Origin: Thermoplasmatota archaeon
GTDB lineage: Archaea > Thermoplasmatota > Poseidoniia > Poseidoniales > Poseidoniaceae
Length of the DNA: 34,520 bases
NCBI GenBank assembly: GCA_036162675.1
Contig: JAYYBT010000066.1
Span: 1 to 34,520, forward strand
Direction: 5' to 3'
In this document: positions 10,799-32,635 of the stretch, one piece after another
Position numbering within the stretch: the first letter of the stretch is position 1
How the letters are laid out: each line of letters begins with the position of its first letter
Notes under the pieces: generated by a model
Databases searched by the model: none
Told to the model about the DNA's origin: nothing
What the model saw: the letters and a program-made list of their open reading frames with translations, nothing else
Program-made: the position numbers and the translations under genes

Positions 10799-11314
10799 AT
10801 GGAAGGCTCTCGTCTCCGACTTACGGGTACGGGTGAAGGCTTCGCCACCGTCGTACGCACCACCCTCTCAGGGGCTGATTCCCCACGAAGGATCCTCGAC
10901 GCTCTGCAGCGTATTTTCCCAGATGCGGAAGTTGATATGTTGCCAGACGAGCCTTCGTTTGGTCGCGGCTCAGACCAAACATGGTCCTTTGAAGACCTCT
11001 CCTTAGCGACCTTTCTCAACCAACTTCACGAGCAGCGAATTCTTGACACGGCCTTGGACGCCATGTCGGTCAACATGAAGGAAGAAACGACAACGTTTCA
11101 CATCGCCCGTTTGGCTGCTGTCGCTGGAAAAATTGCCTTCCCCATACCCGGAGACCGTCCCCTTGGAGGCGTGTTTGAAATCAGCATCGCAGGAAAAGGC
11201 CTGGGTGATTGGTTGCAGGCAGCGACATGGCATGCTGGCAGGAGTCAAGTTCCACGCCACATTAACGACGAGCGTTCGATGGATGAAGACGGCGAGTCAT
11301 CTACGTGGATTTGA
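10799..11314 (+). CDS. UPF0201 (COG1931) family archaeal protein, predicted RNA-binding fold
   Basis: 171 aa, ATG at 10799. ILDALQRIFPDAEV and LHEQRILDTALDAM...TTTFHIARLAAVAGKIAF...PLGGVFEISI resemble, from my memory of the family, the conserved blocks of archaeal UPF0201 proteins (FP...RILDTAR...NKQAA..G...F...PLGPI). Needs an HMM check. Confidence 0.6.
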   Translation: MEGSRLRLTGTGEGFATVVRTTLSGADSPRRILDALQRIFPDAEVDMLPDEPSFGRGSDQTWSFEDLSLATFLNQLHEQRILDTALDAMSVNMKEETTTFHIARLAAVAGKIAFPIPGDRPLGGVFEISIAGKGLGDWLQAATWHAGRSQVPRHINDERSMDEDGESSTWI

Positions 11315-17000: not shown

Positions 17001-19468
17001 CAAATTGAGACCACACCGTCAGCATCCTCTGTTGAGGTGCAATTTGCAGCATCAAACACGACGATCTCGCCCGCATCGGAATTCACGCTGCACACATCGC
17101 CACGCTGCCAGGTGAATGAAGGGTTATCGCCGTGGGTGTGCTCAATGGCGATAACGGCCTTGGTCACATGGTCCACTTCATCGCCGGGTGCGACGCGGGT
17201 GATGAAGTTCCTGTACAACCCGTCAGGGGCGGCCAGACCGCCCTCAAACGATGCGCCAACGGCGCGTGTTTGCATAGCGTAGGTGATGTCAATATTGGAG
17301 AGTTTCACTCGGCCCGAACTCGCCGCTTTTACGGCAATGGGGATGTCAACTGAACCATCACCGTTTTCGGGGATGTGGTCGTTAAAGGCGTCCACCAATG
17401 TGGGCGCACGTTTCACCACGGCACCCACGGGTGAATCATCGGAGGCGACCACGGAGGACTCGTTAAGGAAGATATCCGATTCCCAATCATAGGTCCCGTC
17501 CCCGCCAATATCAAGCATGGGCCGGTCAGGATAACCTTCCTCGTATTCGAGAGTAAAACTGTCAATGGAAGGGGTCAGGCCGTCGTCGGTCGAGGTCATG
17601 AAGACGGCGTAGCGCAGGGTGCTCCCCGCTGCTTCGGTTGGGAAACTTCGTTCCTGATTGTTGGAAGCATCCAACCACGTGCTGCCGTTGTCGTTGGAGA
17701 CCACGACTTGCAGCGATGTTCCTGCGGGAACATCAGCCGTCCATTGTGGGCGAACTTTCCCGACCTTGGTCCCAGCGTTAAAGTGAGGCGAGGTCCAATC
17801 CCCAGATGTTTGGTAGGCGGTGGCGTATTCGATGTCAATCCACCACGAAACGGCCGATGAGCCGATGAGTTGGGCCTTCCAAACGAGTTCCTTGCCGGGG
17901 TAGTCAAAGTGGATGGTGGACTCAGATTCCACTTCTTCCCAGTGCGTTCCGTTGTCAGCCGAGATCCAGTAATCAACGCGGTCGCCGATGGAGGCTGCGG
18001 ACCAGTAGGTCTCAACATTGGCAGAGAGAATATCCTCTCCAGATTCAACGACCTCACCGTACCATGTGGTGGTTCCGGGAGCAGGCGTGGTCTCGTACAT
18101 CCAACCGGTCCCGAACTCGCGATAATACAGCGTAGCGCTTGACCATGTTGAGTAGCCACTGTCAACCGTCACGAAGCGCTCGCCGTCAAACTGGAGACCG
18201 TAGCCTAGGCGAGAAATCTGACGGGTTGTCGATTCGGGGATGAGGGAAGAGGAGGTGCCTGAGACGGACCAGGCCTCAAGTTGGTCTCGGTCGTTGTAGG
18301 GCGAGTCTTCCTGACAGCGCATGTAAAAGGTGGAGCCGTTGACTTCCAAACCACGTAGCATCTGCTTCTGGCTGCTGCTGTATGTTCCGCCACACTCCCA
18401 ACTGGAACCGGAAGCCGAGGTGTAGCTGTAGTACTCTTGACTGCGGGTGTAGGTCGAGGTTCCATCCCCAGCGAAATCATAGGAATAGAGCCGATTCATG
18501 GCGTTGTGAGCCACCCACACTTTTCCGGTGTCCCTGTCGTAGGCGATGCCCGTGTATTCACCGACAGAGGGTGAAATATCGTAGGAGTCAATGCACGTCC
18601 ATGTGTCATCACGAGAGATGTCCATCTCCATCACACGATGATAGTTGACCGGTGCGGTGGACCCGTAGGTGTAGCGATAACCAGAGAGAATTCCGAACAA
18701 GCGCTCGTCATCGGTGACGGTCCAGTCTCGGAAACCATAGTAGCCGTAATAGGAAGAGGAATGCTTCTGGGGCAAGGTGCACGACGCCTTGTCGAGGGTA
18801 ATGACCGATTCCCGTGAAGCGTTGTTTGGATACAAGCGTTCGACGATGTTGTGGAACGTGGAAGATGACCACGTGGAAAGGAACAACCAATCGTGGTGCT
18901 TGAGAATGGCCCCTTGGCTTTGAGCCATGAAACTCGACGACGTCTTCGTCAACTGCTGTGAGTAGAGCGACTCGGTGGCGTTGGACGTGTGGGGCTGCCG
19001 CAAAGCATAGGAGCCGTTGTCCAGCCAAGCATCTGAATTGGGGTCGACATAAGCGTCGTTTCCGTGGGGCAGGAAGTTGCGACTGATGTTGTCCAAGCCC
19101 AAGGTCAAGTCGCCTGAACGGTCATCGACAGCGCTCTCAGCACCGCGAATCCAATGCACCCGGTCATCGGCCACGATTTGCGACCACCCGGTGGCAGATG
19201 CACCCGAGAGGGTCATGCTCACGTCGGTCACGTAGGCACCACGGGGGAGGGAAACGGACGCACCCATGTCAGGATTGGCGCCTTGGTACAAGGCCACATG
19301 TTCGACCGAACCATCGCTGAATTCGTAGACGTGTCGCGTTCCTGCGGCCGCTTCGGCTTCATTTGAGAACAACTCTGCCATCGGGCTGAGAGGTGTCAAA
19401 AACATCAAGGAAACGAGGAGCAAAAAGACAGCCCTCGGGGGAATTCTATGCTGTCCGCCACCTTGCAT
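14015..19468 (-). CDS. giant (1817 aa) type I membrane-anchored surface protein with proline-rich cytoplasmic tail
   Basis: The track start 19486 is TTG; ATG is at 19468. Signal peptide MQGGGQHRIPPRAVFLLLVSLMFLTPLSPMA. Y/S/T-rich propeller-like N-region. Two Asp-box motifs (SADNGTHW, SNDNGSTW). Many beta-sandwich-like modules. C-terminal TM VFSVSLFIIALASVSFGLYAMVL, then an acidic segment, the proline-rich tract QPPAPTGPIPPPPGSVSPVPPAPTAASPVPPPPSGP, and LPDGWTQEQWNSYGWQYIDALSKK. Confidence 0.85.
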   Translation of the reverse strand: MQGGGQHRIPPRAVFLLLVSLMFLTPLSPMAELFSNEAEAAAGTRHVYEFSDGSVEHVALYQGANPDMGASVSLPRGAYVTDVSMTLSGASATGWSQIVADDRVHWIRGAESAVDDRSGDLTLGLDNISRNFLPHGNDAYVDPNSDAWLDNGSYALRQPHTSNATESLYSQQLTKTSSSFMAQSQGAILKHHDWLFLSTWSSSTFHNIVERLYPNNASRESVITLDKASCTLPQKHSSSYYGYYGFRDWTVTDDERLFGILSGYRYTYGSTAPVNYHRVMEMDISRDDTWTCIDSYDISPSVGEYTGIAYDRDTGKVWVAHNAMNRLYSYDFAGDGTSTYTRSQEYYSYTSASGSSWECGGTYSSSQKQMLRGLEVNGSTFYMRCQEDSPYNDRDQLEAWSVSGTSSSLIPESTTRQISRLGYGLQFDGERFVTVDSGYSTWSSATLYYREFGTGWMYETTPAPGTTTWYGEVVESGEDILSANVETYWSAASIGDRVDYWISADNGTHWEEVESESTIHFDYPGKELVWKAQLIGSSAVSWWIDIEYATAYQTSGDWTSPHFNAGTKVGKVRPQWTADVPAGTSLQVVVSNDNGSTWLDASNNQERSFPTEAAGSTLRYAVFMTSTDDGLTPSIDSFTLEYEEGYPDRPMLDIGGDGTYDWESDIFLNESSVVASDDSPVGAVVKRAPTLVDAFNDHIPENGDGSVDIPIAVKAASSGRVKLSNIDITYAMQTRAVGASFEGGLAAPDGLYRNFITRVAPGDEVDHVTKAVIAIEHTHGDNPSFTWQRGDVCSVNSDAGEIVVFDAANCTSTEDADGVVSIWMPTKVNWSWNDEGSAEAIITVEDDFGVAVNQWTTAEMELVVENDIQLDGLRVWEETGRQLFPMDWVRGGFNLSFSGSIHFQDSQLMPPAGSFSLRIIGQNVTYDGDPLGEPVVLYEEVNPAFGAYNMTFTSPIESQPGGMIFYVQAVNLENGSTFTNPNYNSIRLILDGNSPLVLSATPMDGEERHAGASGVGQSVSVVVQDSVDPPRQLNLHYWVGCKASEAIGCTDYNFDGLPNEDEYELVVLGSPETRAGGLNIFEGLIDDSMLLHKQRVSFYVSGEDEQDNEIAMGRGPVCPVSSITCGDRPGEVLPDWDADLVTYHIRQEFEPEVDLTNSSILGHDDYDPLHPGVPYTARIKLSDTNGWQDIQYVQVALAGDFDDDESSLFISLAEGDDGQPMAVMTSGSDNIAVSNLYSTVSLEEGNESVVIIEARFQLTWMFPEAYDTDGEAHFLPRIKVTDMPCNDNEVVPCFEVEEGLGDNWWSLDNDFRFDTQPGKIRAIELRNSENHYNSENYETIIGAGQALRVSGRVLFAEDETPAPPGSFDVVFGDYENNWRTSTREDGEFSLDLLVPSVRSGRLDLRLSMDDMPGFALDETAFSPRVRLAVDSARPTIDSISLNGVPQGSPLSIGDASNLEVILITNDENGFDTGEAAVLHYRVKAGEAEISRGSVLLPDITPFGQQYFWSGSLDLTDSGATTLLPSYAVDVWVSGSDEAGNPYDTDSNSMSEPFASWPLALVGPRVDLQDPSTSMQWDVPSPYVGDTSKMVVNTNNLGGNGDVTFALQELVDGGFWSTVTSVELQATAGNPLTASLPVTADGPVGSSIEYRVLVLVDGVEMDRHTVDSLLIKEETVRDGEALTQQLSTDVFSVSLFIIALASVSFGLYAMVLRRRMLAPESEEELADQTDVVAEEMKSGKAVPELAQPPAPTGPIPPPPGSVSPVPPAPTAASPVPPPPSGPDRTKPAPVPPTGLPDGWTQEQWNSYGWQYIDALSKK

Positions 19469-19531
19469 GGTTGCCACACGCTCCAAACACCATTTGAACC
19501 ATGCGGTTTGGGGTCGGCAGACGATACGCCG

Positions 19532-22500
19532 TCAACTGGTTTGTCTGGAGTCGTAGCGAATGGGTGAAGAATCGCCGCGCACACCGTCTTCTTCATCATC
19601 ACGGACCTCGAACCAATCGTTCATCCAATCACCGTCGGTATCCCAGTTAATCGGGCTACTCCCTTCGGCCAAATGGTCATCATCAAAGTCGAGCAGGTAC
19701 CAACCGTATTCGTGTTCGCCAACGCTTCTGACCGGCGCCGTTTGGGGTGAACTCGCGTAATAGATATCCCATGCATCGGTCCTGTTACCTGCCATCAGGA
19801 TCACGTCATCGGACGGGTCAACGATGAGGAAATTGGTGTCCTTATCGTCAACGATGTAGCCGTATTGGTTGTCAGGTCCACCAAATTTATCCAGTTTGAG
19901 GTAGTTCAAGACAAGCTCGTCGCTCTGGCCCAAACCGAGCAAGGCTGCTCTGAACTGCCAACCTTCGGTGACGGGTGCACCGTCGTAGGTCAGGGCACTC
20001 AAGCGAACAGCGTTTGGAGAGGAATACTCGCTGGCCGTAATGGCGTAGAATTCTTGGAAATTTGTGTAGGGCTCATAGCTGCAGCCCACACCGGTGCAGT
20101 CCCAATTACCGTCCTGGTCAGGGTCGAGGTTGGCATCGTTGGGATCGGCCGGGTCCAAGGTAAACCACGTGAACTCGGTGTCCGGACGAGCCAAGGTTCC
20201 GCCCGAGCCGTCCTGCGATAACGGCAGGCATGAGTTGGTGGCCGTTGTGCAGGCCCCGCCTGTGGCGACATCGATCCACACCACACGAACATCGAGGTAG
20301 GAACTGAAGTTGTCGTTGCTTTCGTTCCAGGCCATCTTGTACTCGTACCAGTCGGGCAACATGTCGCCGTCGGTATCGTTATCGCTCGGGTTTGAACCGT
20401 ATTTGAACACCTCACGACCGTCTGAGTAATTGTAGTCTCGAACGTGCGAGACCACCGCTCCGTTGACCACGGTGGTGATGAAGGTTCGACTGTCCTCGTC
20501 GCTATCGTTGAGGTCCGGGCGAGTTTGGTTGTCGTACTCCATGAAGTTCGTGAACGGAAGGTTGCCCACCCCGTTCTGAACAACGACGCCAGAGGGCGTG
20601 AACACACGGTCCTGCCATGTCCCTTGGGTTGCGGGGATGTCAAAGCTCGTACGGTCGTACCAACCATCGTGGTCGCCGTCGTAATCCACGTCCCACGGGT
20701 TGAGCGGGTTGGCCGCCCAGTGATTCTGGGTCGTGACATCGTCCATTCCGTAGGTAGCGTAGCAGTATTCCCAACCGTCGGGAATGCCGTCGCTGTCCGA
20801 ATCATGGTGCGTCGGGTCGGCGACGCCACGGAGGCTTCGGTTGAAATTCTCGCTGTCAAGAGAATTGATTTGCGCCATCCGATCAACCGACTCGGGTCCT
20901 TTCTTGACAAAGTCCAGATACAAGGCTTGCTGAGCCTGCACCGGCGTGAAGCCAAGTTCTTCTTGATAGGCTGCCATCGCATCTTCGCCGAAATCGATGA
21001 TGCCTAAATTCGCAGGGACGGTGTTGCGCGTCAGGTACTTCCCCCACGTCCTGGATTCCCATTCACGAAGGTTGCTGAAGGTCTCATTTGCATCAATTTG
21101 GCCATCACCATTGCAATCAAAACTGTCGTCGTCCGAGTCGAGGTTCACATCACCGTCAATAAGTGGGTTGATCGCCCAACGGTTTTGGTCAAGGTCCCAC
21201 GACGTGAACCAATACTCGAAACCGTCGAACATACCGTCACCGTCGGTGTCGGCGATGGTCGGGTCGGTCATGCCCAGCACCACTTCGATGAAGGCATTGG
21301 GTGGTTCACCTTGTTGCCATGCATTGAAATCGTTGAGCAAACGCTTCCCGCGCGTGTCTTTGGAGATGAGGATGTTAAACACGCGCTGAGCTTTCTCGGT
21401 TGGTTGTTGGAAGTCACCGTCAATGTGCATCAGTGGCGCATCGCTGGGATGGTCGATGCCGTTGTCGGGTTGTGAGGAAGCGAGGGCAAACTCTTGACGG
21501 TCGATGAGACCGTCTTCATCCCCGTCAAAATCACCATCGCCCGCCACCAACGGGTTGAGCGTCCACATGCCGGCCGAGTCGTTCCATGAAGTAAACAGCA
21601 GTTCAACACCGTCCAACATCCCATCACCGTCGGTATCGACGTTGTTCGGGTCGGACGTGAAGCCGGTCAAGTTGGTTTGATTTTCCGTGAGGAAATCGCC
21701 GAAGGAAAGGGTGGCGGTGATGCCCGGCCAATTTTGGAGCGCAAAGGCGGTGCCAATGGTCGTCACAAACCACTGCGGCGATGAGCGATTGGCGTCTGTT
21801 TCAGACAGCGACGGAGAGATGACGTTGTATTCCTCCCAATTGGTCATACCGTCATCGTCGGCGTCTTGCCAACGGTCGGTGGAATCCAGTGGATTGAGCG
21901 TCCATGCGTCGTCAAGGAGATTCCATCGTGCAAACCAAATTTCCCACCCGTCAGGCATCCCATCATCGTCGGTATCGGCGCTGAGTGGGTCTGCGGCACC
22001 AACGCTGTAAGCGGAGAGCCCCGCCGTGACGGAACCCGAGGCGCGGTTGGCAAAGGTGTCGTCAGGAAGACCCAGGTCGCTGATATGGTCAAAGAGACGC
22101 GTGGTGAAGCCCTCGGGAAGTGCATCACCGTCAAGCGTCTGATTGCCGTTGAACAAATCCGAGCGAATGTGGTATTCCAAGTAATTCACGAAGGCTTCGT
22201 CCTCTGAGAGCACGCCGTCTCGGTTGACGTCGTATCCATCGCCGTCGGGGTTTTGGAACGCATCGGAGCCGTTGAGTGGATTCACACCGACTCGAGAGGG
22301 GTCCCAAGAGCACAAGCCCTTGGATTCCCATCCGTCGGGCAAGGTATCGCCGTCAGAATCAACAAGATTCGGGTCGGCCACCGCCCATGCCTCTGCAGCC
22401 TCGGGTGTTTCGCCGTACTCATCGAACAGGTCACCGTTGATGCCCATCAACCGAACGACTGACCATTGATATTCGCACAGGTTTGGTAGACCATCACCGT

Positions 22501-25282
22501 CAGCGTCCCAGTTGGCGTCCTCGGAACGCAACGGGTCAAGGCTCCAGTTGTTACCGCCAGAGAAGCTATCTCCTACCCAGCGGCGATGTTGAATTTCCCA
22601 GCCATCGGGCATGCCGTCGCCGTCGGAGTCGTGATTGGTCGGGTCGGTGGCTGCGTCTACGTTGGCCATTGAAAGGTAGGTGGCGTTGGCGGCCGCACCC
22701 TTGGCCTCATCGCAGACATAGACCAGTTGAACGGTGTAGTGACACCAAAGGTTGCTCTGTTCATAGAAGAAGCCGTAATATTCCGCTCCATCCCCAACGC
22801 CATCGCCATCGGTATCACCTTCGCGTGGGTCGGTGGAATTGTAACCTTCTGGTGTGAGTTTGGTGTAGCGGAATTCGTCGAGGTTTGTCCACAATCGCTC
22901 CAGACTCATATCACCCGATTGGTCGAGGTCAAGACCGTCTGCATCGTTGTCGTAGAGGGCGTCCCAAGGGTCGGTGGGGTCGAGACCGTGAACCACTTCC
23001 CAACCATCAGGCATGCCGTCGGAGTCGGAATCGTTGGCCCCGGGGTCCATGAGCAGGAGGTTAGCATAGCGACCCGGAGATGCAGCACCGTAGATGGTGA
23101 CATTGCCCTCACCAACCGAGGTGGCGATGGCGACGATTTCACCGGGAAGCCTTGTTTGGTCCTGAAGACCGTAAACCGCAGTGTAATCACCTGCCAAGGC
23201 CCAAAGGCCCCACTGTGAACCAATCAACAACTCATCACCTGTGGGGTGAATGGCGTGGATGTTGTTGGATTCGCTTGAAAGTTTTCCATCAACGCCCGGA
23301 TGCGTCATCAGCCCGCTGTGTTCGATGAAATCATCGTTCAAATCCAGTTTGTGAAGACCTGATGGCGTTCCAAACCAAAGGGCTTGGGCGTTGGATGGGG
23401 CTGGGCCGTCGAGCACGAGGTCCCGAACTTCTGCTGGGTTGTCACTTGACCCGAGTGGCAAACTGCGAAGTTCGTCAACGTTGGTCGGAATCGGGTTGGA
23501 TTCTGGCGTGTAAAAGAAACGCCATGAACCGGTTGCTTCGTCCCGAGCGGAAGGGGTATCGACGATGAACAAACCTCGGTCGGTGCCCACGAAGAGATGG
23601 AACGTTGTGCCACCTGCCAGCCCGTGCGTGACTGCGCTGACGCTCGCATTGGCTTCGGCCAGACCGGCTTGCAATCCGGCACCGAGCGCATGGGTGGAGG
23701 CAATGGAAGCAACGCTGTCGATTTCCACAATGGCGCCATCGCCGGCGTGGCCCAATCCGATGGCGTGAAGGTTCACATCTTCACCGGCGAGCGGTGCGAC
23801 AGCGTGAAGTGGACCAGAAAGGCTCCAATCCCAGGCCGTGATGGAATCCAGACTGCCATCAGCCAAAAGCGGTGCAACGGCGAAGCCGATGCTCGTTCCC
23901 ATCACGAGCGCATAGGGTGCACCGTTGGAGGAGGCGAGGAAGCCGTCGTGGAGGAGGACGCCTTGTGGAAGCCAGTGATGGCTTTGCGTATTGGTTTCAT
24001 GATCAACAACACTGACCCCGTATTTCGTCAAGGCGTAAACAGACCCGTCGTGTTCCTCAAGGGCCCGAACATCATGGTGCATGATGGCAAGAACATCTTC
24101 AGGGACATCATAGACAAGCGGCAGGGTCTCAAACCCAGTTTCGTCGCCCACAAGGGTGGTTTTCAAACCAGGATAAACGGTGTTACCGTCGTCGTAGTGA
24201 ACCAAATATTCCTCAAGGGTTGACAAGGCTTCACCGAGGTCAAGCGCCGTCTGTGTACGGGCCAAGTCTTGGCTGATACCACCGTCACGGTTGGTGTCCC
24301 AACCGTCCAAATCCGGGTCTTCCAAAGCATTGGAGCGGTTCAAGGGGTCAAGTCCGAAGTGCACTTCCCACCCATCGGGGATGCCGTCGCCAAAGGAGGG
24401 GTAAAGCGGGCGGATGGAGAAGCCGTCCCACAGGTAGCGGTCAGAATCATCCAACACCGGGTCGGTGCCCAGCCAGAGGTCCTCGCCCACTGGGTTTTCA
24501 GCGCGAGAGGTGCAGGCCTTCAACAGGTTGTGGAAGGTGGCGTTCGCGCCCGATGGCAGGTAAGGCCAATTCTTCAACGCAGCACCTTCTGGCAACGTAG
24601 CGTGACACCAAAGCCCATCGAGTTCAGCGGTGAAATTTGATGGCGTTCCGTGAGCGTATTCTTCGGGAGCCGTGTAGCGCTCAGCATCGCTCAGAATGCC
24701 GTCCCTGTCAACATCAAAACCGTCGTTGTCGCCGTCCAGCGTCAAATCGCTGCCGTTCAGCGGGTCAAAGGAAGGGCAGAGGTAACGCAGCGACACGGGG
24801 TCAAATCCACCCATGCGGTGGCACATGTAGGCTTCGTACCCGTCGGGCATGCCATCCCCGTCTGAATCGGACACCCGCGGGTCAAGATAAACACGGTCGC
24901 TGTTTTCATCCAGTTGACCGGTGAGGCCGCGTGGGAAACCAGGTGCGGTGCAATTGGCAGGATATGGCCAACAGAATTCTTCTGTGGCGTTGAGGCCGTC
25001 TCTGTCTCGGTCTGTGGAAGCGTCAGAAGCGTTGTTTTTGTCAAGGCCGGGAATGATGACATCGCGTCCGTCAACAGCGGTCCAGTTCATCCATTCCTCA
25101 AACAGCGTTTCGTGAACGTCGGGGATCAAATCACCGTCGGTATCGGTGTTTGGAGGTGGCGTCCCATCGGTGTCATCGGGATGGACGTTGGAGACATTGG
25201 AGATAGCCGGGAATTGCGACATGAACAGAAGGCTTGCAATCACGGCAAGCGTGGTCAAGATGGTTGTCTGACTTCGTCGCAT
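19532..25282 (-). CDS. giant (1916 aa) secreted Ca-binding repeat protein (thrombospondin type 3-like repeats, EF-hand-like loops, central propeller-like region)
   Basis: The track start 25369 is TTG. ATG at 25282 is preceded by GAGGGTGA (25287..25294) at 4-nt spacing. Signal peptide MRRSQTTILTTLAVIASLLFMSQFPAIS. About two dozen DxDxDGxxDxxE motifs (DSDGDGMPDGWE and variants). Central aa ~400-775 carries Reg_prop-like LWFGTPSGLHKLD, HLFVGTDRGLFIVD and LLIGSQWGLWALA. No C-terminal TM. Confidence 0.9.
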   Translation of the reverse strand: MRRSQTTILTTLAVIASLLFMSQFPAISNVSNVHPDDTDGTPPPNTDTDGDLIPDVHETLFEEWMNWTAVDGRDVIIPGLDKNNASDASTDRDRDGLNATEEFCWPYPANCTAPGFPRGLTGQLDENSDRVYLDPRVSDSDGDGMPDGYEAYMCHRMGGFDPVSLRYLCPSFDPLNGSDLTLDGDNDGFDVDRDGILSDAERYTAPEEYAHGTPSNFTAELDGLWCHATLPEGAALKNWPYLPSGANATFHNLLKACTSRAENPVGEDLWLGTDPVLDDSDRYLWDGFSIRPLYPSFGDGIPDGWEVHFGLDPLNRSNALEDPDLDGWDTNRDGGISQDLARTQTALDLGEALSTLEEYLVHYDDGNTVYPGLKTTLVGDETGFETLPLVYDVPEDVLAIMHHDVRALEEHDGSVYALTKYGVSVVDHETNTQSHHWLPQGVLLHDGFLASSNGAPYALVMGTSIGFAVAPLLADGSLDSITAWDWSLSGPLHAVAPLAGEDVNLHAIGLGHAGDGAIVEIDSVASIASTHALGAGLQAGLAEANASVSAVTHGLAGGTTFHLFVGTDRGLFIVDTPSARDEATGSWRFFYTPESNPIPTNVDELRSLPLGSSDNPAEVRDLVLDGPAPSNAQALWFGTPSGLHKLDLNDDFIEHSGLMTHPGVDGKLSSESNNIHAIHPTGDELLIGSQWGLWALAGDYTAVYGLQDQTRLPGEIVAIATSVGEGNVTIYGAASPGRYANLLLMDPGANDSDSDGMPDGWEVVHGLDPTDPWDALYDNDADGLDLDQSGDMSLERLWTNLDEFRYTKLTPEGYNSTDPREGDTDGDGVGDGAEYYGFFYEQSNLWCHYTVQLVYVCDEAKGAAANATYLSMANVDAATDPTNHDSDGDGMPDGWEIQHRRWVGDSFSGGNNWSLDPLRSEDANWDADGDGLPNLCEYQWSVVRLMGINGDLFDEYGETPEAAEAWAVADPNLVDSDGDTLPDGWESKGLCSWDPSRVGVNPLNGSDAFQNPDGDGYDVNRDGVLSEDEAFVNYLEYHIRSDLFNGNQTLDGDALPEGFTTRLFDHISDLGLPDDTFANRASGSVTAGLSAYSVGAADPLSADTDDDGMPDGWEIWFARWNLLDDAWTLNPLDSTDRWQDADDDGMTNWEEYNVISPSLSETDANRSSPQWFVTTIGTAFALQNWPGITATLSFGDFLTENQTNLTGFTSDPNNVDTDGDGMLDGVELLFTSWNDSAGMWTLNPLVAGDGDFDGDEDGLIDRQEFALASSQPDNGIDHPSDAPLMHIDGDFQQPTEKAQRVFNILISKDTRGKRLLNDFNAWQQGEPPNAFIEVVLGMTDPTIADTDGDGMFDGFEYWFTSWDLDQNRWAINPLIDGDVNLDSDDDSFDCNGDGQIDANETFSNLREWESRTWGKYLTRNTVPANLGIIDFGEDAMAAYQEELGFTPVQAQQALYLDFVKKGPESVDRMAQINSLDSENFNRSLRGVADPTHHDSDSDGIPDGWEYCYATYGMDDVTTQNHWAANPLNPWDVDYDGDHDGWYDRTSFDIPATQGTWQDRVFTPSGVVVQNGVGNLPFTNFMEYDNQTRPDLNDSDEDSRTFITTVVNGAVVSHVRDYNYSDGREVFKYGSNPSDNDTDGDMLPDWYEYKMAWNESNDNFSSYLDVRVVWIDVATGGACTTATNSCLPLSQDGSGGTLARPDTEFTWFTLDPADPNDANLDPDQDGNWDCTGVGCSYEPYTNFQEFYAITASEYSSPNAVRLSALTYDGAPVTEGWQFRAALLGLGQSDELVLNYLKLDKFGGPDNQYGYIVDDKDTNFLIVDPSDDVILMAGNRTDAWDIYYASSPQTAPVRSVGEHEYGWYLLDFDDDHLAEGSSPINWDTDGDWMNDWFEVRDDEEDGVRGDSSPIRYDSRQTS
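19600..25160 (-). repeat. dispersed intragenic repeats encoding the DxDxDG-MPDGWE Ca-binding unit
   Basis: Example DNA copies, written as plus-strand text: 22595..22633 is ttcccagccatcgggcatgccgtcgccgtcggagtcgtg, and 22997..23035 is ttcccaaccatcaggcatgccgtcggagtcggaatcgtt. Similar units recur through both arms of the gene flanking the repeat-poor 23045..24172 core. Confidence 0.7.
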
Positions 25283-25286
25283 GAAC

Positions 25287-25294
25287 TCACCCTC
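25287..25294 (-). promoter_or_regulatory. Shine-Dalgarno-like GAGGGTGA for ATG 25282
   Basis: The minus strand reads GCCGAGGGTGAGTTC-ATG. This is 7 of 8 matches to GGAGGTGA, with 4-nt spacing. Confidence 0.45.
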
Positions 25295-25470
25295 GGCAAA
25301 GCCTCCGCCTCGCTCTCTTTTCACCTTGCTAAGATTGCTTATGAGGGTGATGGAACAATGTTCATACAAATCGTCGTTCCAATCGGTGGTTTCGTTCGGA
25401 AAACCATCACTTTCAGGCCGCCCTTATCGGTGCATTCAAGTCCTTTCCGCGCTGGAGTGCCGATGTTCAC

Positions 25471-26283
25471 ATGACCATGACCATCACCCACTTGGGCACC
25501 GGCAGTCGGGGCAACTCAACGTTGCTCGAGACCCCTCGTGTCAAGGTCTTGGTCGACCAAGGATTCAGCGGGGCACAACTGGCCAAACGATTGGCTCGGT
25601 TGGAACTGAAACCTGAAGATATTGATTGCGTGTTCATCTCACACCACCACGGCGACCATGGCGGCGGAGCCAAGGTCCTTCAAACTCGTTGGAACATTCG
25701 CGTTCTGGCCAACGAACGAACAGCCATGGAATTGGACCTCCTGCCCGAGCTCACCACCTATTTTGAGGCGCTTGACCTCGTTCGTGTGGGCGAAGATTTG
25801 GCGATTCTCCCCGTCCCGGTACCCCACGCCGGGTCTGACAATGTGGCCTTTGTCGCAAGCCACGGAGGCGAACGTGCCGCCATCATCACCGACCTCGGTT
25901 CGTGGACCGATGAGTTGGTCACCCACGTTCGTGGTTGCGAGCACATCTCCATCGAGGCCAACTACGACCACAACAAATTGATGTACGGACCCTACCCCTA
26001 TTCCCTCAAAGACCGCATTTCCGGCCGAGGTGGACACTTGTCCAACGAACAGACGGGCCAATTTTTGGCCGAGGTTTGCACTGAAAAAACGCGAAGCATC
26101 ACGTTGACTCACTTGAGCGAGAAAAACAACATGCCTCACCTCGCCGAATCAACGGTCTTGTACTTTATTGACGAGGTGTTTTCGGGCGACCTCCGCATCT
26201 CCGCCCAAGACGGCCCGGATTTTTCTCACTACATTGGCAAGGTCAACGAGACGGTCGAGGCCGAAAAGAAGGCGAGCAACTGA
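25471..26283 (+). CDS. MBL-fold metallo-hydrolase
   Basis: 270 aa, ATG at 25471. ITHLGTGSRGNSTLL N-terminus, VFISHHHGDHGGG (HxHxDH zinc motif), and downstream His/Asp positions (VPHAGSD, ITDLG, LTHLS) typical of the metallo-beta-lactamase fold. Substrate not inferable. Confidence 0.85.
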   Translation: MTMTITHLGTGSRGNSTLLETPRVKVLVDQGFSGAQLAKRLARLELKPEDIDCVFISHHHGDHGGGAKVLQTRWNIRVLANERTAMELDLLPELTTYFEALDLVRVGEDLAILPVPVPHAGSDNVAFVASHGGERAAIITDLGSWTDELVTHVRGCEHISIEANYDHNKLMYGPYPYSLKDRISGRGGHLSNEQTGQFLAEVCTEKTRSITLTHLSEKNNMPHLAESTVLYFIDEVFSGDLRISAQDGPDFSHYIGKVNETVEAEKKASN

Positions 26284-26300
26284 GCGTTGAAGCCCACATT

Positions 26301-26307
26301 GAGGTGA
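26301..26307 (+). promoter_or_regulatory. Shine-Dalgarno site GAGGTGA, 8 nt before ATG 26316
   Basis: Exact 7-mer complement of the canonical archaeal/bacterial 16S 3' end (CCUCC core). The 16S gene itself is not in the window. Confidence 0.6.
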
Positions 26308-26315
26308 ATGGCTAA

Positions 26316-27401
26316 ATGATACGGGGTTGTGTCAACCTTGTGAACCGACGCACCGGCCAAGTTCAGTCTCATCGCCTGCGCGATGAAGACCGTGGTGTCA
26401 GCGAGGTTCTCGGCGTGGTCATGCTCTTGGCCATGGTCATCACCATCATGGGTGGCGTCTGGGTGTTTCTCAACCCCTACCTCTCGGATTTTGAAGACAA
26501 CACCAACTGGAATTCAGCCACTGGGTTGGCCGACCGCATCGAGGACCGGCTTGAGGTCGCAGGAAACGCGCCAGATGGGACTGGATTCCGCAACACATTG
26601 GCCATCCAGTCAACATCCATTCGCACCGTGCAAAACGTCGAACATTGGAGCATCAGCGCCGATTTGACCGAACGGGAGCGCATCCAATTACGCCATGTCA
26701 ACGATACGACAGTGGCCGTGTTGGCAGCCAACGAAACAGCTCGTTCCATCTCGGTTGAGTCGCCCGGCGTCTACTTCGAGGATGACGTGACCCGTAGTCA
26801 CCTGGAGGTGTTCATCACCCACAACGCCAGCGCCTCCCACTGGATGATCATCACCGTTTACGGGGCGGATGACGAACCCCTCCACCGTCAAGTGATGTGG
26901 ACCCTTTCTGGTTTGCAAATCACCACGTCTCTTGGTCAAGGCGAACATCAAATTGCGCTGATGAATAACGCCCGGGCAGAACGGTTTCCAAACCAGGCAT
27001 GGGAGGTCAGCGCCATGCCATCGGTTGAATTTGACCGCATGGCCAACGATGAACTACGCCTCTCCATCCTGCTCACCGATGTCACCGCCAACGGCAGCAT
27101 CGGCTCGGGGTCAAACGTCGGTATGCAATTTGTATCTCAAGGACCAATGACGCTCTTCACAGGTCGGGCCTACAACGTCAACTTCAACGTCTTCAACTCT
27201 CTTCACGATGTTATCACGCCTCAATACCACAACAGTTGGCTATCTGAATACACCGTGCAACGCTCGGCAGGCACCCTGGACACCTACATCGGTTTCGCAC
27301 CTTACGAGCGGGCCAGCGGTGCAGATGGATTCAGTGTCTCCGCACAGAACCTTCCATTGTACTTTGAAGTGGACATCCAGCGCGTGGAGGTGAGTCGATG
27401 A
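26316..27401 (+). CDS. large type IV pilin-like protein (class III signal peptide, DUF1628-like N-terminus)
   Basis: N-terminus ...RLRDEDRG/VSEVLGVVMLLAMVITIMGGVWVF: a charged leader, a G at -1, then a 24-residue hydrophobic helix. This is the archaeal prepilin architecture. The mature part of ~330 aa is beta-rich. SD lies upstream. The stop overlaps the next start (ATGA). Confidence 0.75.
   Translation: MIRGCVNLVNRRTGQVQSHRLRDEDRGVSEVLGVVMLLAMVITIMGGVWVFLNPYLSDFEDNTNWNSATGLADRIEDRLEVAGNAPDGTGFRNTLAIQSTSIRTVQNVEHWSISADLTERERIQLRHVNDTTVAVLAANETARSISVESPGVYFEDDVTRSHLEVFITHNASASHWMIITVYGADDEPLHRQVMWTLSGLQITTSLGQGEHQIALMNNARAERFPNQAWEVSAMPSVEFDRMANDELRLSILLTDVTANGSIGSGSNVGMQFVSQGPMTLFTGRAYNVNFNVFNSLHDVITPQYHNSWLSEYTVQRSAGTLDTYIGFAPYERASGADGFSVSAQNLPLYFEVDIQRVEVSR
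27386..27393 (+). promoter_or_regulatory. Shine-Dalgarno site GGAGGTGA, 4 nt before ATG 27398
   Basis: Exact 8-mer match to the SD consensus, lying inside the 3' end of the preceding CDS. Confidence 0.6.
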
Positions 27402-29632
27402 ACGGGTGCATGCGCAGGGACGAGGAGGCGGTTTCCGCCGCTGTCGCAACCGTTCTCTTGTTCGGTGGCGTCCTTTCCATTATCGGGTTGATGATGGTCT
27501 CCATGATGCCGGTCATCGAGGAAATGGAAGGCTCGGTTGAACGCCACGATATGTCGTCGCAGATGAGCCTCCTCGCCCACGAAACCTCAGCACTCAGCGA
27601 GCGTGGAATGCCAGGTGATGTGGCGCAAGCGACGTTGATTCCCGTTGACGGCGAGTTGGTTTGGGACAGTTTGCGAGGAGGGATGTGGTACTCCGCCACA
27701 TGGGTTGAAGATATGAGTCTGCGAGCACGAGGAGCGCTGGATTTTGACGATACGCTGGAGATTCGACACCCCGAGAGTTTCATTGAAGCCGTGTGCATCA
27801 CGGACCTTCGCATGGGACCTGACAGACCTTACCACTACACCTTGGAGGCGGTTCTTGATGCAGCGATGGTGACCGTCACCCCTGGGTTGGCAATGCCGCT
27901 TGGTCCAATTGAGGTAGCCTTGGTTGAGAACGGCGAAGAAACGCAGACCATTTCCCTCCGAGTTGATGAGATGGCGACCTTTGACTTGGAAACCATGGGG
28001 GAAGCCGTGTTGACCTCAAGCCATGCCCTCAATGTTCTCGGGCTTGTCGGAAACAGCGGCGCAACCTATGTCCTGCCAAATTCACCCGAACCGGCGGATA
28101 AACGTGGACAAGCATGGTCCATACCGGCCATGGCAGGCCAACACACCGTTCAACTTCTCAGCGAATCAGCCAATCAAATTCACATCACTGTTAACGGTGA
28201 AACCACCATTCACTACGCCATGCCAACCGGTCTTGCACGAACCGGTGTTCATTTCACACACGAGGTTGACCTCGATGATGACGGCGTGGTCCACATCACC
28301 ACGAGCGCCCCCTCACGCTTGATATTGAAAGTAAACACAAATGCAACTGAGGGCCTAACAGCCTGGCCTTCCAGCAATGGCGCCTACTTGGGCAACACCT
28401 TCCTCCCTCCCCACCTCAACGGCACACTTCGCTTCACCAATCCCGGCGAAAGCGTGGTCACCATCACATGGAGAGGTGGGGGGATATCCGTAGCAGCCGG
28501 AGAGGTTGAGCATGTGTCGTGGCCACCGGCCTACGACGATGGAGCGGCCACGCTGGACGCCGACGGGGACGTCTTCGTCACATGGGGTGCATCAGCCTCC
28601 ACGAGCAGCACCGACGGCATCAACGGCACCATGTTGCTCCCTGCCGATGATACGGGCGCACTTTCTGGCGGTCTCTTTTCCTATGTGAACAACATGAACG
28701 AGACGGAGGAGCATGTGCTCATTCGCCTGGCAGGCTACACGTCCACATGGAACGTGAGCGGGGCAGATGTCCAAACTGGTGTGTTTTTGGAAACCAACAG
28801 GCTTCGCACCATCACCCTTGACGAGGGCACGACAACGATTCGTGTCGATTCAGGCCACCCACTGCGGGCCATGCGTACCGCAGGCGAAGCCGGTCTCCTT
28901 CACCTTCCTCACGACGGGGAACGCCGATGCACCAGCATTGGCACCCAAGCCAGTGGATGGATCAGCACCGACCTGCCATGGGAACGCATGGGTGGTCGTG
29001 GTGAAATCGATATCCGAGAAGCGTGGCGTGATGGACGGCACCCCGCAAGTTTGAGCATTGATGTGCTGGGTGACGACGGCCGTTCTTCCCACAGTTCCAT
29101 CGGCTCGGTCTGGGCCTTCCACCTCTCTCGCCTCTCCTATCAGTTTTCATCTTCAATCGACGGCATGGAAGTGGCCTTCAGCGGTGGTGCGGTGGTCACC
29201 AACCATCCCGAATTCAAACCCTACGTTGTGGTGCCGCCCTCCGACCGAGGCGGGCCCGGCCCTCGGTTCGCTGCAACAATACCCTCGCTCCACCCCACCG
29301 CATCCAGTGAGAGCGGTGCAGGTGAATTGGAATTGGACATCGAATTGGTTCATCGCACCTCGCTCGCCTCAACACCCGCCTACGAGGTCCGTCGTGGATG
29401 GTCCGAGCCATACGGCACCGCCATCGCCGATAACGCCGGCATCGGCCTCGAGGCGAGCGAAGATTGGACCGTCTATCCAGGTCGGTTGGACTTACTCACC
29501 GATTACGTAGGCTGGGTGCCCGACCCAAGCTATGGCACGGCAGAAGCCGTTTGGCACACCAACGGCGAAATCATCGAGTTCACCCTTCAATTGGCGTCCA
29601 TTGACGTAACGGCTCGGGAGGTGCTGGTATGA
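27398..29632 (+). CDS. very large (744 aa) pilin-like protein with class III-type N-terminus
   Basis: MNGCMRRDEEA/VSAAVATVLLFGGVLSIIGLMMVSMM: a short charged leader plus a long hydrophobic helix. A later block AFSGGAVVTNHPEFKPYVVVPPS parallels IALMNNARAERFPNQAWEVSAMPSVEF of the upstream protein. Translationally coupled on both sides. The -2 residue is E rather than K/R, so processing is less certain. Confidence 0.65.
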   Translation: MNGCMRRDEEAVSAAVATVLLFGGVLSIIGLMMVSMMPVIEEMEGSVERHDMSSQMSLLAHETSALSERGMPGDVAQATLIPVDGELVWDSLRGGMWYSATWVEDMSLRARGALDFDDTLEIRHPESFIEAVCITDLRMGPDRPYHYTLEAVLDAAMVTVTPGLAMPLGPIEVALVENGEETQTISLRVDEMATFDLETMGEAVLTSSHALNVLGLVGNSGATYVLPNSPEPADKRGQAWSIPAMAGQHTVQLLSESANQIHITVNGETTIHYAMPTGLARTGVHFTHEVDLDDDGVVHITTSAPSRLILKVNTNATEGLTAWPSSNGAYLGNTFLPPHLNGTLRFTNPGESVVTITWRGGGISVAAGEVEHVSWPPAYDDGAATLDADGDVFVTWGASASTSSTDGINGTMLLPADDTGALSGGLFSYVNNMNETEEHVLIRLAGYTSTWNVSGADVQTGVFLETNRLRTITLDEGTTTIRVDSGHPLRAMRTAGEAGLLHLPHDGERRCTSIGTQASGWISTDLPWERMGGRGEIDIREAWRDGRHPASLSIDVLGDDGRSSHSSIGSVWAFHLSRLSYQFSSSIDGMEVAFSGGAVVTNHPEFKPYVVVPPSDRGGPGPRFAATIPSLHPTASSESGAGELELDIELVHRTSLASTPAYEVRRGWSEPYGTAIADNAGIGLEASEDWTVYPGRLDLLTDYVGWVPDPSYGTAEAVWHTNGEIIEFTLQLASIDVTAREVLV
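29617..29623 (+). promoter_or_regulatory. Shine-Dalgarno site GGAGGTG, 5 nt before ATG 29629
   Basis: Exact 7-mer SD match inside the 3' end of the preceding CDS. Confidence 0.6.
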
Positions 29633-30108
29633 ATCGTGGAAGCCTGACCCGGGACACCAGAGCCGCAGCTACTGAATTGGGCTACATTTTCACCTTCTTG
29701 CTGGGTGTGTTGTTGATGAGCATGTTCAGTGTGTGGGCATGGGACATTGAAACAAACACCCGTTTGCGTTGGAACGAGGAAGCCATCCAAGCGAACATGG
29801 ACGACATCGCTGCCGCCGTGGAACGGGCGGATGAAGCCAGTCGCCTCGGTGGAAACATCTCCTATGCAGAGGAGATCAGTTGGCGGCCAACGGAGGCCGA
29901 TGAGTCGCTCTTTTGGTTGGAATTGCACGATACAGCCCTGATTCTCATCGATGAAGGAGGGCCTCTTGACACGGAGATTTCCCTTTCGGGGACCGGGGCC
30001 GGCACGCATGAGGGGCGAGTGCCGCTCGCTGGTGTTGAACGCTTGTGGGTGGTTCATGACGATGGCATAACCTTCCTTTCACTCGACCGGCCACAGGCCG
30101 TTCAGTGA
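29629..30108 (+). CDS. small pilin-like protein (class III-type N-terminus, resembles haloarchaeal minor-pilin families)
   Basis: MNRGSLTRDTRA/AATELGYIFTFLLGVLLMSMFSVWAW, followed by a helical segment EEAIQANMDDIAAAVERADEASRL. From memory this pattern resembles DUF7266-type proteins of archaeal pilin loci; needs an HMM check. Preferred over the antisense ORF 29587..30057 because of the SD and the ATGA coupling. Confidence 0.65.
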   Translation: MNRGSLTRDTRAAATELGYIFTFLLGVLLMSMFSVWAWDIETNTRLRWNEEAIQANMDDIAAAVERADEASRLGGNISYAEEISWRPTEADESLFWLELHDTALILIDEGGPLDTEISLSGTGAGTHEGRVPLAGVERLWVVHDDGITFLSLDRPQAVQ

Positions 30109-30109
30109 A

Positions 30110-32635
30110 TCAACGACTCATGACCGCTCTGTGGACCATGGCTTGGACTTCTCGCATTCGTGTTTTTGCACCAAGTTCCCTGAACACCGTCAATGCACGC
30201 TGCAGATATTCCATGCGGCCTTGACGGTCGGGGGCAACCCCACCAAGTCGCGTGAGAAGTTCTCCAATCTGCATCCGCAGATCATTGGCCTCAGCCAGCA
30301 CCAAGGCCTGGCTATAATGCTCCATGGCTTCATCGGTGCGCCCAGCATCGTGCAAAACTTCACCCAGAAGCATGGTGATTTCCACCAAGGATTGCACATC
30401 ACCTGCCTCGGTCATGGCCTCAAGCGCTTCGGAATAGTGGAACAAAGCCAATTCGGATTGCTCGACCTTGGAGTAGTATCGGCCCAATACGCCCTGGGCA
30501 CGAGCGTGGAGCAAAACATCACCCATTTCCGCTGTTCGTTCATGCGACGCCATGGCGTGTTCCCGAGCACGGTCAACCTCGCCGAGAGAAATGAGGGCTC
30601 GGGCGAGTGTGATTTGGCTGTTGATGAGCTCATCGTCCTCAGAATCTGCGAGAATGGCTTCCACTTCACCGTAGGCTTCCAAGGCTTTGGCACGCTCGTT
30701 TTTTCGTCGAAGCAGGTAGCCGATGTTGTTGTAGGTCCGAGCAGCCCATCGGGCGTGTCCTCGTGCGATGTAATGCTTCAGGGCTTGCTTGTGGCGACTG
30801 AGGGAAAGGTCGCTATCTCCCTGTTTTCGGCTCACGTCTGCCATTGAAGAGAGGATTTCGGCCTGTATCAATTCATCAGCGCTCTTCTTTGCTCGTTCAA
30901 GGGTCGCGCTGAGCACTTCTTCGGCTTCTTCAAGGCGACCAAGAAGAGCAAGAATATCCCCTTGCAATTGTGCCATGCGAACCACGACATCAGACGAGAG
31001 GTCGTCTGTTTCGATTTGCTCAATGAGCCCGAGCAGTTCCATGTAGCCTTGAGAGATGAGTTGCCGTCCTTCGGTGACCACGAGGTTTGAGGCCTCTTCG
31101 TATTGTGCTGCTTGGATGGAGTGGTAAATCAGTTCAATGAGCATGTCATGAGTTTGTGTTTGCTTGAGGTACCATTCCACACACTTCCCGTGAAATTCCT
31201 GACGAAGTGCAGGAGAAAGGCTACGCAAGAGGAACTCTCGAATCAAATCGTGCACATCGTATGTTTCCGAATCCGCTTGGCGGGCGAGCCCGGATTCAAC
31301 CAAACCATCCAACTCATCCGTGTCCAATTGTTGTTGAGCGAGGGCATCAAGTTCAACGGGTTCACGGAAAATGGAGAGCGCAGAGAGGACACGTTTCTGT
31401 TCGGCACTCAATTTTGAGAAAATCTCAACGGTCACATAATTCTCCAGCGTTTCGTGAAAGGCACCTGCAGATGCACCACGGTTGATGAGTTCCAAAACGA
31501 GTGGGTGGCCACGAGAAAGACCGTGAATGTGCAACCATTGCTCGTCCTCCAACGTCTCAAAGCTTGTCAATAACTTCCGACCAGATTCAGGGTCCAAACC
31601 GTCGAGGGGAAGCACCAAACTGGCGATCCGACCCTCTGCGTCCTTGGTCGGCACCACCGGCTTGAAAGAACGAGAGAAGATGACCAAACCAATCTTCTCT
31701 TCACTCCCCAGCAAAGCCAGCGACATGGCTTGGAATGTTTGATGGAGCACCATATCCGAGACCTTGTGGAAGTCGTCAATGACCAAGAGGGAGGGCGTGC
31801 CTTCCAACGCCTCGACCAAAATACGGGCAGCGTCGGCGGGTTGTGGAACCGGTGTGGCTGCGAGGTAGGTGGAGAAATCCACATTGCCCATGCTCGACAA
31901 CCAATCGGCCACCGATTCAAAGAACGAACGGGAACCTTCCCAATCCTGACATCGGTGGTAGAGGAGATTTCTTCGGTGCATGAAGCGCTCAATCAGTTTT
32001 GACGCCATCGTGGTCTTTCCAATCCCTGCAATGCCGGGTACAAGCAAGGTTGTGGCCCTCGCCTCAAGCAAATTGACCATGTTGTCAAGTTCAGTCGTGC
32101 GACCGTAGAAATGGCGCAACCGGGGTAGGTCAGCAAGTGATGTCACCAGTTGCTTCTCAACATGCTTTGACAAATCACGTTCAACCAAGTCGGCCGAGAG
32201 GTTTCGAACATCCAAACAATTCTGCTCATCGATGTACCGAATGATGTCCACCGGCCGCATCTCAAAAGGCAAAACAGACTTGGCTCCGTTCAGGGTCGTC
32301 GCCACAGCGGGTTGGTCATCGAGGATGCAACGAACGGGAAATTCTGCGAGCCTCTCCCATGTTTCGTTGGCTAGAGCGATGCCCGAATCGGTCAAAAAGT
32401 AGGCTTTGCGTTTGCGAGATACACCTTTCACGTGTGCTTGACGCTCGACGAGAATACCTTGGTCTTTCAAGCCGGCAATTGCACGAGGCACGTTGGACCG
32501 CGCAATGGCGACGGCGTTGGCAATCCCCATTTGGGAGAGCGCAAAGGGAACCTCAATGCTGTCCTTGTAGTCGGAGTAATCCAACAAGTGCAACAGGATG
32601 CGTTCCTGAACACCGGGTTTTGCCTGTGCGGCCAT
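30110..32635 (-). CDS. wHTH - STAND (NB-ARC/AP-ATPase-like) NTPase - TPR protein
   Basis: 841 aa, ATG at 32635. N-terminal winged-helix pattern (LSQMGIANAVAIARSNVPRAIAGLKDQGILVERQ...KRKAYFLTDSG). Walker A LVPGIAGIGKTT (~32008..32037). Walker B LLVIDDFH (~31766..31789). VIFSRS and LPLDGLDPESGRKLL motifs. About 330 aa of TPR-like repeats (ARTYNNIGYLLRRKNERAKALEAYGEV). Confidence 0.85.
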   Translation of the reverse strand: MAAQAKPGVQERILLHLLDYSDYKDSIEVPFALSQMGIANAVAIARSNVPRAIAGLKDQGILVERQAHVKGVSRKRKAYFLTDSGIALANETWERLAEFPVRCILDDQPAVATTLNGAKSVLPFEMRPVDIIRYIDEQNCLDVRNLSADLVERDLSKHVEKQLVTSLADLPRLRHFYGRTTELDNMVNLLEARATTLLVPGIAGIGKTTMASKLIERFMHRRNLLYHRCQDWEGSRSFFESVADWLSSMGNVDFSTYLAATPVPQPADAARILVEALEGTPSLLVIDDFHKVSDMVLHQTFQAMSLALLGSEEKIGLVIFSRSFKPVVPTKDAEGRIASLVLPLDGLDPESGRKLLTSFETLEDEQWLHIHGLSRGHPLVLELINRGASAGAFHETLENYVTVEIFSKLSAEQKRVLSALSIFREPVELDALAQQQLDTDELDGLVESGLARQADSETYDVHDLIREFLLRSLSPALRQEFHGKCVEWYLKQTQTHDMLIELIYHSIQAAQYEEASNLVVTEGRQLISQGYMELLGLIEQIETDDLSSDVVVRMAQLQGDILALLGRLEEAEEVLSATLERAKKSADELIQAEILSSMADVSRKQGDSDLSLSRHKQALKHYIARGHARWAARTYNNIGYLLRRKNERAKALEAYGEVEAILADSEDDELINSQITLARALISLGEVDRAREHAMASHERTAEMGDVLLHARAQGVLGRYYSKVEQSELALFHYSEALEAMTEAGDVQSLVEITMLLGEVLHDAGRTDEAMEHYSQALVLAEANDLRMQIGELLTRLGGVAPDRQGRMEYLQRALTVFRELGAKTRMREVQAMVHRAVMSR

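Follow-up and report, generated by a model that had tools for sequence, protein, structure and literature searches.

A 34,520-nt stretch of DNA from a Poseidoniales archaeon (Marine Group II, MGIIa; GenBank assembly GCA_036162675.1, contig JAYYBT010000066.1, positions 1 to 34,520, hereafter the window) carries three consecutive genes for pilin-like proteins, here named B (361 aa), C (744 aa) and D (159 aa), headed by a gene for a 270-aa hydrolase of the metallo-beta-lactamase (MBL) fold. What is new in this unit is its lineage-specific set of pilin-like families; a new system is not demonstrated. The explanation that we prefer, with a probability of roughly 0.55, is that B, C and D are prepilin-like proteins that would be processed by a remotely encoded A24 peptidase and joined through their helices into a minor-pilin/tip complex or a short pseudopilus, with their beta-sandwich domains exposed for adhesion.

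Organisation of the four-gene unit

All four genes lie on the forward strand, at exactly the coordinates given in a first-pass annotation of the same DNA, i.e., MBL at 25471-26283, B at 26316-27401, C at 27398-29632 and D at 29629-30108. The intergenic distances between MBL and B, B and C, and C and D are 32, -4 and -4 nt, respectively, the latter two being ATGA stop/start overlaps (27398-27401 for B/C, 29629-29632 for C/D). Each pilin-like gene is preceded on the same strand by a long Shine-Dalgarno (SD) match, i.e., GAGGTGA for B (26301-26307, spacer 8 nt), GGAGGTGA for C (27386-27393, spacer 4 nt) and GGAGGTG for D (29617-29623, spacer 5 nt). The first-pass annotation had singled out these matches, and a scan of the 25 nt 5' of 18 large open reading frames (ORFs) against the anti-SD complement AGGAGGTGATC agrees with it, as matches of 7-8 nt were found at B, C and D only, the remaining 15 ORFs (including MBL, which has no SD) reaching at most 5 nt. 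Taken together, the SD pattern and the overlaps fit B, C and D as internal, translationally coupled cistrons of a unit with the MBL gene at its head. The 32-nt gap between MBL and B holds no terminator, which suggests that in the lineage of the window the MBL gene is probably co-transcribed with B-C-D. No obvious TATA-like promoter element was seen 5' of the MBL gene.

Class III-type N-termini

B, C and D each begin with a short charged leader that ends in a small residue at position -1 and is directly followed by a hydrophobic stretch, the one hydrophobic segment of each protein. The leaders span residues 1-27 in B, 1-11 in C and 1-12 in D, and cleavage is predicted at DRG/VSEVLGV, DEEA/VSAAVATV and TRA/AATELGY (the slash marks the predicted site, after which the sequences read VSEVLGVVMLLAMVITIMGG, VSAAVATVLLFGGVLSII and AATELGYIFTFLLGVLL, respectively), leaving mature proteins of ~334, ~733 and ~147 aa. 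The first-pass annotation had described all three as oversized, which is true of B and C but not of D, whose mature part has the size of a normal pilin.

N-terminal alignments (69 sequences for B, 74 for C, 19 for D) are variable on the leader side of the predicted site (1.7-3.1 bits of entropy at most positions; 1.7-2.4 bits at -2 to -8 in B), and entropy is 0 at +1 to +7 in all three families, i.e., the drop falls exactly at the predicted site. Position -1 is occupied by A or G only in all of these aligned sequences, S being found in a few further C orthologues, and position -4 is mostly D. The leader of C carries the motif R-D-E-x-[AG], followed by an invariant hydrophobic segment (n = 74 members), the A/G at -1 of D and the residues after it are kept in 19 to ~70 orthologues, and the same N-terminal pattern recurs in ~85 loci as well as in orthologues from Thalassarchaeaceae (MGIIb) at 29-40% identity. 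When aligned with one another by hhalign, B, C and D match over the leader and hydrophobic helix only, in register at R-D-[ED/T]-x-[AG]/, and homology among their globular parts was rejected on this basis. A FlaFind-type check, as had been advised, was run as a crude six-frame screen of the 189 ORFs that reach 60 aa; it picked the three pilin-like genes and, beyond them, a single antisense ORF that lies within a giant gene. The archaeal prepilin (class III) architecture first read from the letters alone is thus borne out by the motif conservation, the entropy drop and the single N-terminal hydrophobic segment; as a prediction from sequence it is well supported by motif conservation and lies below the threshold of every curated model.

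The matches of B to pilin models are likewise confined to the N-terminus and are weak but consistent, as E values of 0.01 or less are reached by 68 of the 69 family members against DUF7289 and by 61 against Pilin_N. C yields one faint match to DUF7289 (14.9 bits), some C orthologues carry a precomputed match to the same family, and the JGI label for some family members is "flagellin-like protein". A PHROGs search returned nothing for B, C or D, and no papers were found in the literature on DUF7289.

Predicted folds of B and C

The AlphaFold2 (AF2) model of B (predicted local distance difference test, pLDDT, 82; predicted template modelling score, pTM, 0.74) has a disordered stretch at residues 1-25, a 58-residue helix at 26-83 and then beta-sandwich domains. 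In that of C, a helical region at residues 9-68 (helices 9-45 and 52-68) is followed by tandem beta-sandwich/jelly-roll domains at 100-575 with a pLDDT of ~90. A long N-terminal helix that leads into a beta-rich globular part is thus present in both models, and the predicted shape is that of a pilin "lollipop" with adhesin-like additions. The C-terminal residues 576-744 of C (29123-29632) have a pLDDT below 50, yet the longest invariant runs of the protein fall there (HLSRLSYQFSSS..., GPGPRFAAT... and DYVGWVPDP), and this combination of conservation and low pLDDT suggests, as we infer, that the last ~170 residues fold only with a partner.

Sequence searches of the PDB with B and C found nothing below an E value of 0.29. 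With Foldseek, B gave a single match at E <= 0.001 against the PDB, a herpesvirus gB chain with a template modelling (TM) score of 0.09 and hence meaningless, and C gave generic jelly-roll, carbohydrate-binding module (CBM) and cupin matches only (TM scores <= 0.13), with no global relative. No enzymatic domain is apparent in C.

Assembly genes and a possible helix-joined complex

Members of the T2SSE/FlaI, T2SSF/FlaJ and A24 peptidase families were not found among the window ORFs tested against Pfam (17 large genes out of 18 and, close to the start of the window, five shorter ORFs), for which the earlier statement that no ATPase, platform or prepilin peptidase is encoded nearby therefore holds. 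Within 25 kb upstream and ~12 kb downstream of the unit (the last ~7.5 kb as read in relatives), no pilus ATPase, platform or peptidase gene is present, and no A24 peptidase was found in the ~45 kb read around the locus. A complete type IV pilus (T4P) locus lying just beyond the window, which had been raised as a way for the unit to turn out to be an ordinary minor-pilin block, is lacking in the ~7.5 kb past the 3' end in the loci of relatives. The locus is not a complete type IV pilus or archaellum locus, since it holds pilin-like genes only, with no FlaI/PilB or FlaJ/PilC/TadC neighbours. Archaeal pilin genes usually lie apart from T4P operons (PMC4858521), so a missing local machine is not out of the ordinary, and for the same reason the proposal of the first-pass annotation that the unit is an undescribed system is not established. 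From all MGIIa genomes, flaB/H/I/J loci have been reported, together with extra flaI/tadC genes elsewhere, and most Thalassarchaeaceae (MGIIb) are reported to be without an archaellum operon (PMC6864105; PMC6461757; PMC6336850).

We postulate that B, C and D are made in fixed proportion off one mRNA and that their short variable leaders would be cut after A or G by a prepilin peptidase of the PibD/FlaK type encoded elsewhere in the genome. The conserved N-terminal helices could then pack in the membrane as a pilin-type bundle, forming either a minor-pilin/tip complex or a short pseudopilus, of which the pilin-sized D would possibly be the repeating or core subunit. Such a bundle would hold the large beta-sandwich domains of B and C on the cell exterior, where their most plausible role would be to adhere to particles or other cells. 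Its extrusion, if any, would be driven by a remotely encoded machine of the FlaI/FlaJ or TadC type.

The MBL hydrolase

The gene at the head of the unit encodes a protein with the motif HHHGDH at residues 58-63, and the full set D29, H58xH60xD62H63, H119, D141, H189 and H214 is invariant in 11 orthologues. It scores 59 bits against Pfam Lactamase_B_2 (cut-off 27) and 57 bits against Lactamase_B (cut-off 22.7). With HxHxDH, the downstream ligands and Pfam scores above cut-off, it belongs to the metallo-beta-lactamase superfamily, as the first-pass annotation had read from the HHHGDH motif. The strongest match in any library was phrog_392, "metal-dependent hydrolase" (E 1.2e-37, residues 1-226), a family on which the literature search found no papers. 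Orthologues carry precomputed matches to Anti-Pycsar_Apyc1 (PF23023), a family that is not listed in the Pfam scan of the MBL of the window, and sequence matches in the PDB cover the generic N-terminal third only (~first 90 residues), Apyc1 chains reaching an E value of ~6e-5 over just 55-70 residues. Apyc1 is an MBL-fold class II phosphodiesterase of cyclic nucleoside monophosphates, related to YhfI and RNase Z (PMC9117128). A known defence system was considered and rejected, PADLOC having returned weak N-terminal MBL and TPR matches only.

No signal peptide, transmembrane segment or other hydrophobic segment was found in the MBL sequence, so the enzyme is predicted to be cytoplasmic, as well as phosphodiesterase-like, and from there it could not act on a captured extracellular substrate, a role that had been suggested for it at first. 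Its linkage to the pilin-like genes had also been proposed for profiling. The adjacency is indeed conserved, but the whole neighbourhood is kept just as well, which makes it weak evidence of a functional link, and the 32-nt spacing is specific to the lineage of the window. Elsewhere in Poseidoniales the gap between MBL and B measures 66, 119, 161, 181 or at least ~340 nt, and across the same lineages the join between B and C stays an overlap and that between C and D an overlap or direct abutment. A functional link of MBL to B-C-D is thus unproven and would be at most regulatory.

In one lineage of 69% GC (locus L092) the MBL gene is uncalled, and a 244-aa antisense ORF is called in its place (7806-8579). 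Loss of the gene was rejected as an artefact of gene calling, as tblastn finds it intact at 62% identity; presence/absence tables based on gene calls would wrongly count it as lost.

A surface-protein island conserved across Poseidoniales

The first-pass annotation had spoken of an orphan operon, a term that is misleading, as the four genes sit within a surface-protein island whose order is kept across Poseidoniales. Synteny was followed by tblastn against 89 loci around homologues plus further divergent lineages, ~95 loci in all. Wherever the contig allows, the order is two giant genes (-), MBL-B-C-D (+), an HTH-STAND-TPR gene (-) and a Big_7/beta-helix giant (-), and in the loci of relatives an S8 peptidase and then an STT3 (AglB) fusion of ~3200 aa follow beyond the end of the window. 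The island is syntenic in the ~95 loci, which come from both Poseidoniales families and include, besides Thalassarchaeaceae (MGIIb), four further divergent lineages with the same order. Identities between the Thalassarchaeaceae proteins and those of the window are 49% (MBL), 29% (B), 33% (C), 40% (D) and 52% (STAND).

The three pilin-like families appear to be restricted to Poseidoniales. An exact database look-up of the 744-aa protein C found it not on record. Its profile, searched against 1.84 billion cluster representatives, retrieved 132 proteins (~13 of them full length), one cluster being named Thalassarchaeaceae, and C homologues are named Poseidoniales, Poseidoniaceae or Poseidonia. 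A scan of a genome collection with the C alignment, which used highly specific peptide patterns, brought up close Poseidoniaceae relatives only. The D profile matched 1189 clusters at E <= 0.1; among the 120 listed, which are dominated by close relatives and include no distant ones, every named cluster is Poseidoniales or an unclassified euryarchaeote.

Upstream of the unit and divergent from it, the island comprises two giant secreted or anchored proteins of 1823 and 1945 aa (14015-25369, -), one of them with TSP3-type Ca-binding repeats. Downstream and convergent lies the gene for an 841-aa protein that combines a winged helix-turn-helix (wHTH), a STAND NTPase (AAA_16) and TPR repeats (30110-32635, -; Pfam HTH_Crp_2, AAA_16 and TPR_12). 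Its position is kept in every locus whose contig reaches it, and, as a neighbour of the unit, it is a candidate regulator. The stop codons of D (+) and of this gene (-) are 1 nt apart (30106-30112), so the convergent transcripts must end within each other's genes, and antisense or interference regulation at this junction is possible. The abutment is seen in nearly all of the MGIIa loci examined, with a 4-nt overlap in an MGIIb locus (L090) and wider spacing in two divergent lineages (43 nt in L092, 202 nt in L094). Beyond position 32657 (-) lies a giant of ~1500 aa (Beta_helix/Big_7) with a C-terminal transmembrane segment and a Pro-rich tail.

Several other features were recorded in the window and among the loci. 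A contig labelled "Verrucomicrobiales bacterium ARS100" (L007, NZEQ01000036.1) bears the archaeal island, its proteins being 87-95% identical to those of the window, and is evidently mis-binned in a public metagenome-assembled genome. On a 1.87-Mb long-read contig (L088, 11083-13310), C is split in two (ORFs of 383 and 368 aa) and the giant genes are broken up, probably owing to indel errors and not because they are pseudogenes. The window also encodes an archaeal/eukaryotic-type S15, a DUF5591 protein and a 352-aa ORF (11301-12359, -) in which Peptidase_C15 (pyroglutamyl peptidase) is fused to a NUDIX hydrolase domain, and at E <= 0.001 Pfam gives nothing for the ORFs at 5277-7508 (+, 743 aa) and 1890-2888 (-, 332 aa).

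Alternative explanations

Not all of the evidence sits well with B, C and D being prepilin-like proteins served by a remote machine, and the following points weigh against it. Position -2 is not consistently K or R, unlike in the classical FlaFind motifs. B stays below the cut-off of each pilin model, with 26.7 bits for DUF7289 (PF23960; cut-off 27; the match is limited to the first 62 of the 238 profile positions), 18.9 bits for Pilin_N (PF07790; cut-off 25.2) and 16.8 bits for TIGR02537 (cut-off 20); C and D were not matched at all in the Pilin_N/TIGR02537 scan, and D matches no Pfam family apart from a faint DUF7266 in 3 of its 19 members. The comparison with pilin-family hidden Markov models (HMMs) that the first-pass annotation had recommended therefore gives a divided answer, i.e., consistent N-terminal matches for B, but all of them below cut-offs and nearly none for C and D. 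Furthermore, genes for an ATPase, a platform or a peptidase are missing from the called genes of the flanks (up to 10 kb per side) in the ~95 loci, and the B-C-D unit is present in MGIIb, a family most members of which are reported to lack the archaellum operon. The low HMM scores, the missing assembly genes and the presence in MGIIb, reported to be mostly fla-less, would suit N-termini that are uncleaved or machine-independent signal anchors, B-C-D being then an envelope complex of the surface island, e.g., one that organises or anchors the cell coat; the synteny of the whole island across both families speaks for this too, and so do the conserved C-terminal 170 aa of C that are unfolded in the monomer model, hinting at a partner. 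We regard this as a serious reading of clearly lower probability, as it leaves unexplained why an invariant small residue stands at the boundary between leader and hydrophobic segment, in register in three otherwise unrelated proteins. It is also at odds with the Pilin_N/DUF7289 matches at the N-terminus in 61-68 of the 69 members of the B family, and with the ~58-residue helix and beta domain that give B the shape of a pilin lollipop. A further scheme, in which B-C-D would be a pilin-derived core part of the envelope island, functionally coupled to MBL and the STAND protein, with no need of a type IV ATPase or platform, and kept throughout the order, including in streamlined MGIIb genomes lacking FlaI/FlaJ/TadC, would amount to a new use of class III-signal proteins and seems to us unlikely.

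The neighbouring genes allow two further readings. Extracellular single-pass proteins could, together with MBL and the wHTH-STAND-TPR protein, make up a sensory or regulatory module that controls the expression of the surface island, an arrangement that may be loosely analogous to WalH/WalI/WalJ beside WalRK in Bacilli. The STAND gene converges on D with its 1-nt spacer and keeps its place beside D in all lineages examined, and the MBL is predicted to be cytoplasmic and phosphodiesterase-like, in line with the hydrolysis of cyclic nucleotides by Apyc1-type MBLs (PMC9117128). Nothing, however, ties the extracellular proteins to the regulator, the tandem beta-sandwiches of B and C are typical of adhesins, and the spacing of MBL and B is variable, so that such a module appears improbable. 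Still harder to credit, and in our view highly improbable, is the version of the first-pass annotation in which MBL belongs to the complex itself and either acts on a captured substrate or matures the displayed proteins. It can appeal to an adjacency that holds wherever a locus is long enough to show it, MGIIb (49% identity) included, and to the short, terminator-free gap that suggests co-transcription here; against it, the enzyme lacks any means of reaching an extracellular substrate, its adjacency is no better kept than that of other island genes, and it drifts away from B in other lineages as the joins of B-C and C-D stay tight. In addition, no prepilin maturation step is known to use an MBL.

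Relation to known systems and significance

B, C and D have in common with the class III pilins of archaea (Haloferax volcanii PilA, the major and minor pilins of Methanococcus maripaludis) the charged leader, the small residue at -1 and the hydrophobic helix, as well as their occurrence as tandem pilin-like genes sited away from those for ATPase, platform and peptidase (PMC4858521). They differ from these in the far larger globular parts of B (~280 aa) and C (~670 aa), for which there is no sequence or structural relative, in their sub-threshold HMM scores and variable position -2, and in families that are apparently confined to Poseidoniales. Against DUF7289 (PF23960), presumably a haloarchaeal family with a pilin-like N-terminus and in Pfam a family of unknown function, the first 60 residues of B pair with profile positions 1-62, and the other 176 positions of the profile are unmatched.

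Bacterial sets with one large member include GspH-I-J-K, FimU-PilVWX, TadE/F/G and the large minor pilins of the CofB/TcpB type. In these minor-pilin and pseudopilin sets the members are co-expressed and differ in size, the largest having extra beta-rich domains and being thought to lie at the tip; unlike B-C-D they are encoded in or near the operons of their machines and there is no sequence relationship, the likeness being one of architecture only. With the Sulfolobus bindosome and the substrate-binding proteins with class III signal peptides (SPIII), which according to a proposal "functionalise" the machineries of type IV filaments (bioRxiv 10.64898/2026.04.22.720090), the unit shares large, non-filament class III proteins and a putative dependence on a remote machine. 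B, C and D differ from them in having neither a substrate-binding-protein fold or Pfam family nor adjoining transporter genes. The MBL protein, for its part, shares the full set of metal-binding motifs with the MBL class II phosphodiesterases (Apyc1, YhfI and relatives of RNase Z) and matches phrog_392 strongly, and in contrast to Apyc1 its gene is chromosomal and archaeal, not phage-borne.

Marine Group II are the most abundant planktonic archaea of surface oceans; none is in culture, and descriptions of their envelope and of the structures by which they attach are lacking. To our knowledge, genomic studies have so far ascribed their attachment only to archaella, thrombospondin-repeat proteins and flotillins. 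The present analysis defines three Poseidoniales-specific pilin-like families, one of them of 744 aa, within a surface-protein gene island of at least ~35 kb whose order is kept across Poseidoniales, and makes both concrete candidates for the attachment of Marine Group II to particles or cells. Should the complex of B, C and D prove to work independently of a type IV filament machine, class III signals would have a wider range of known uses.

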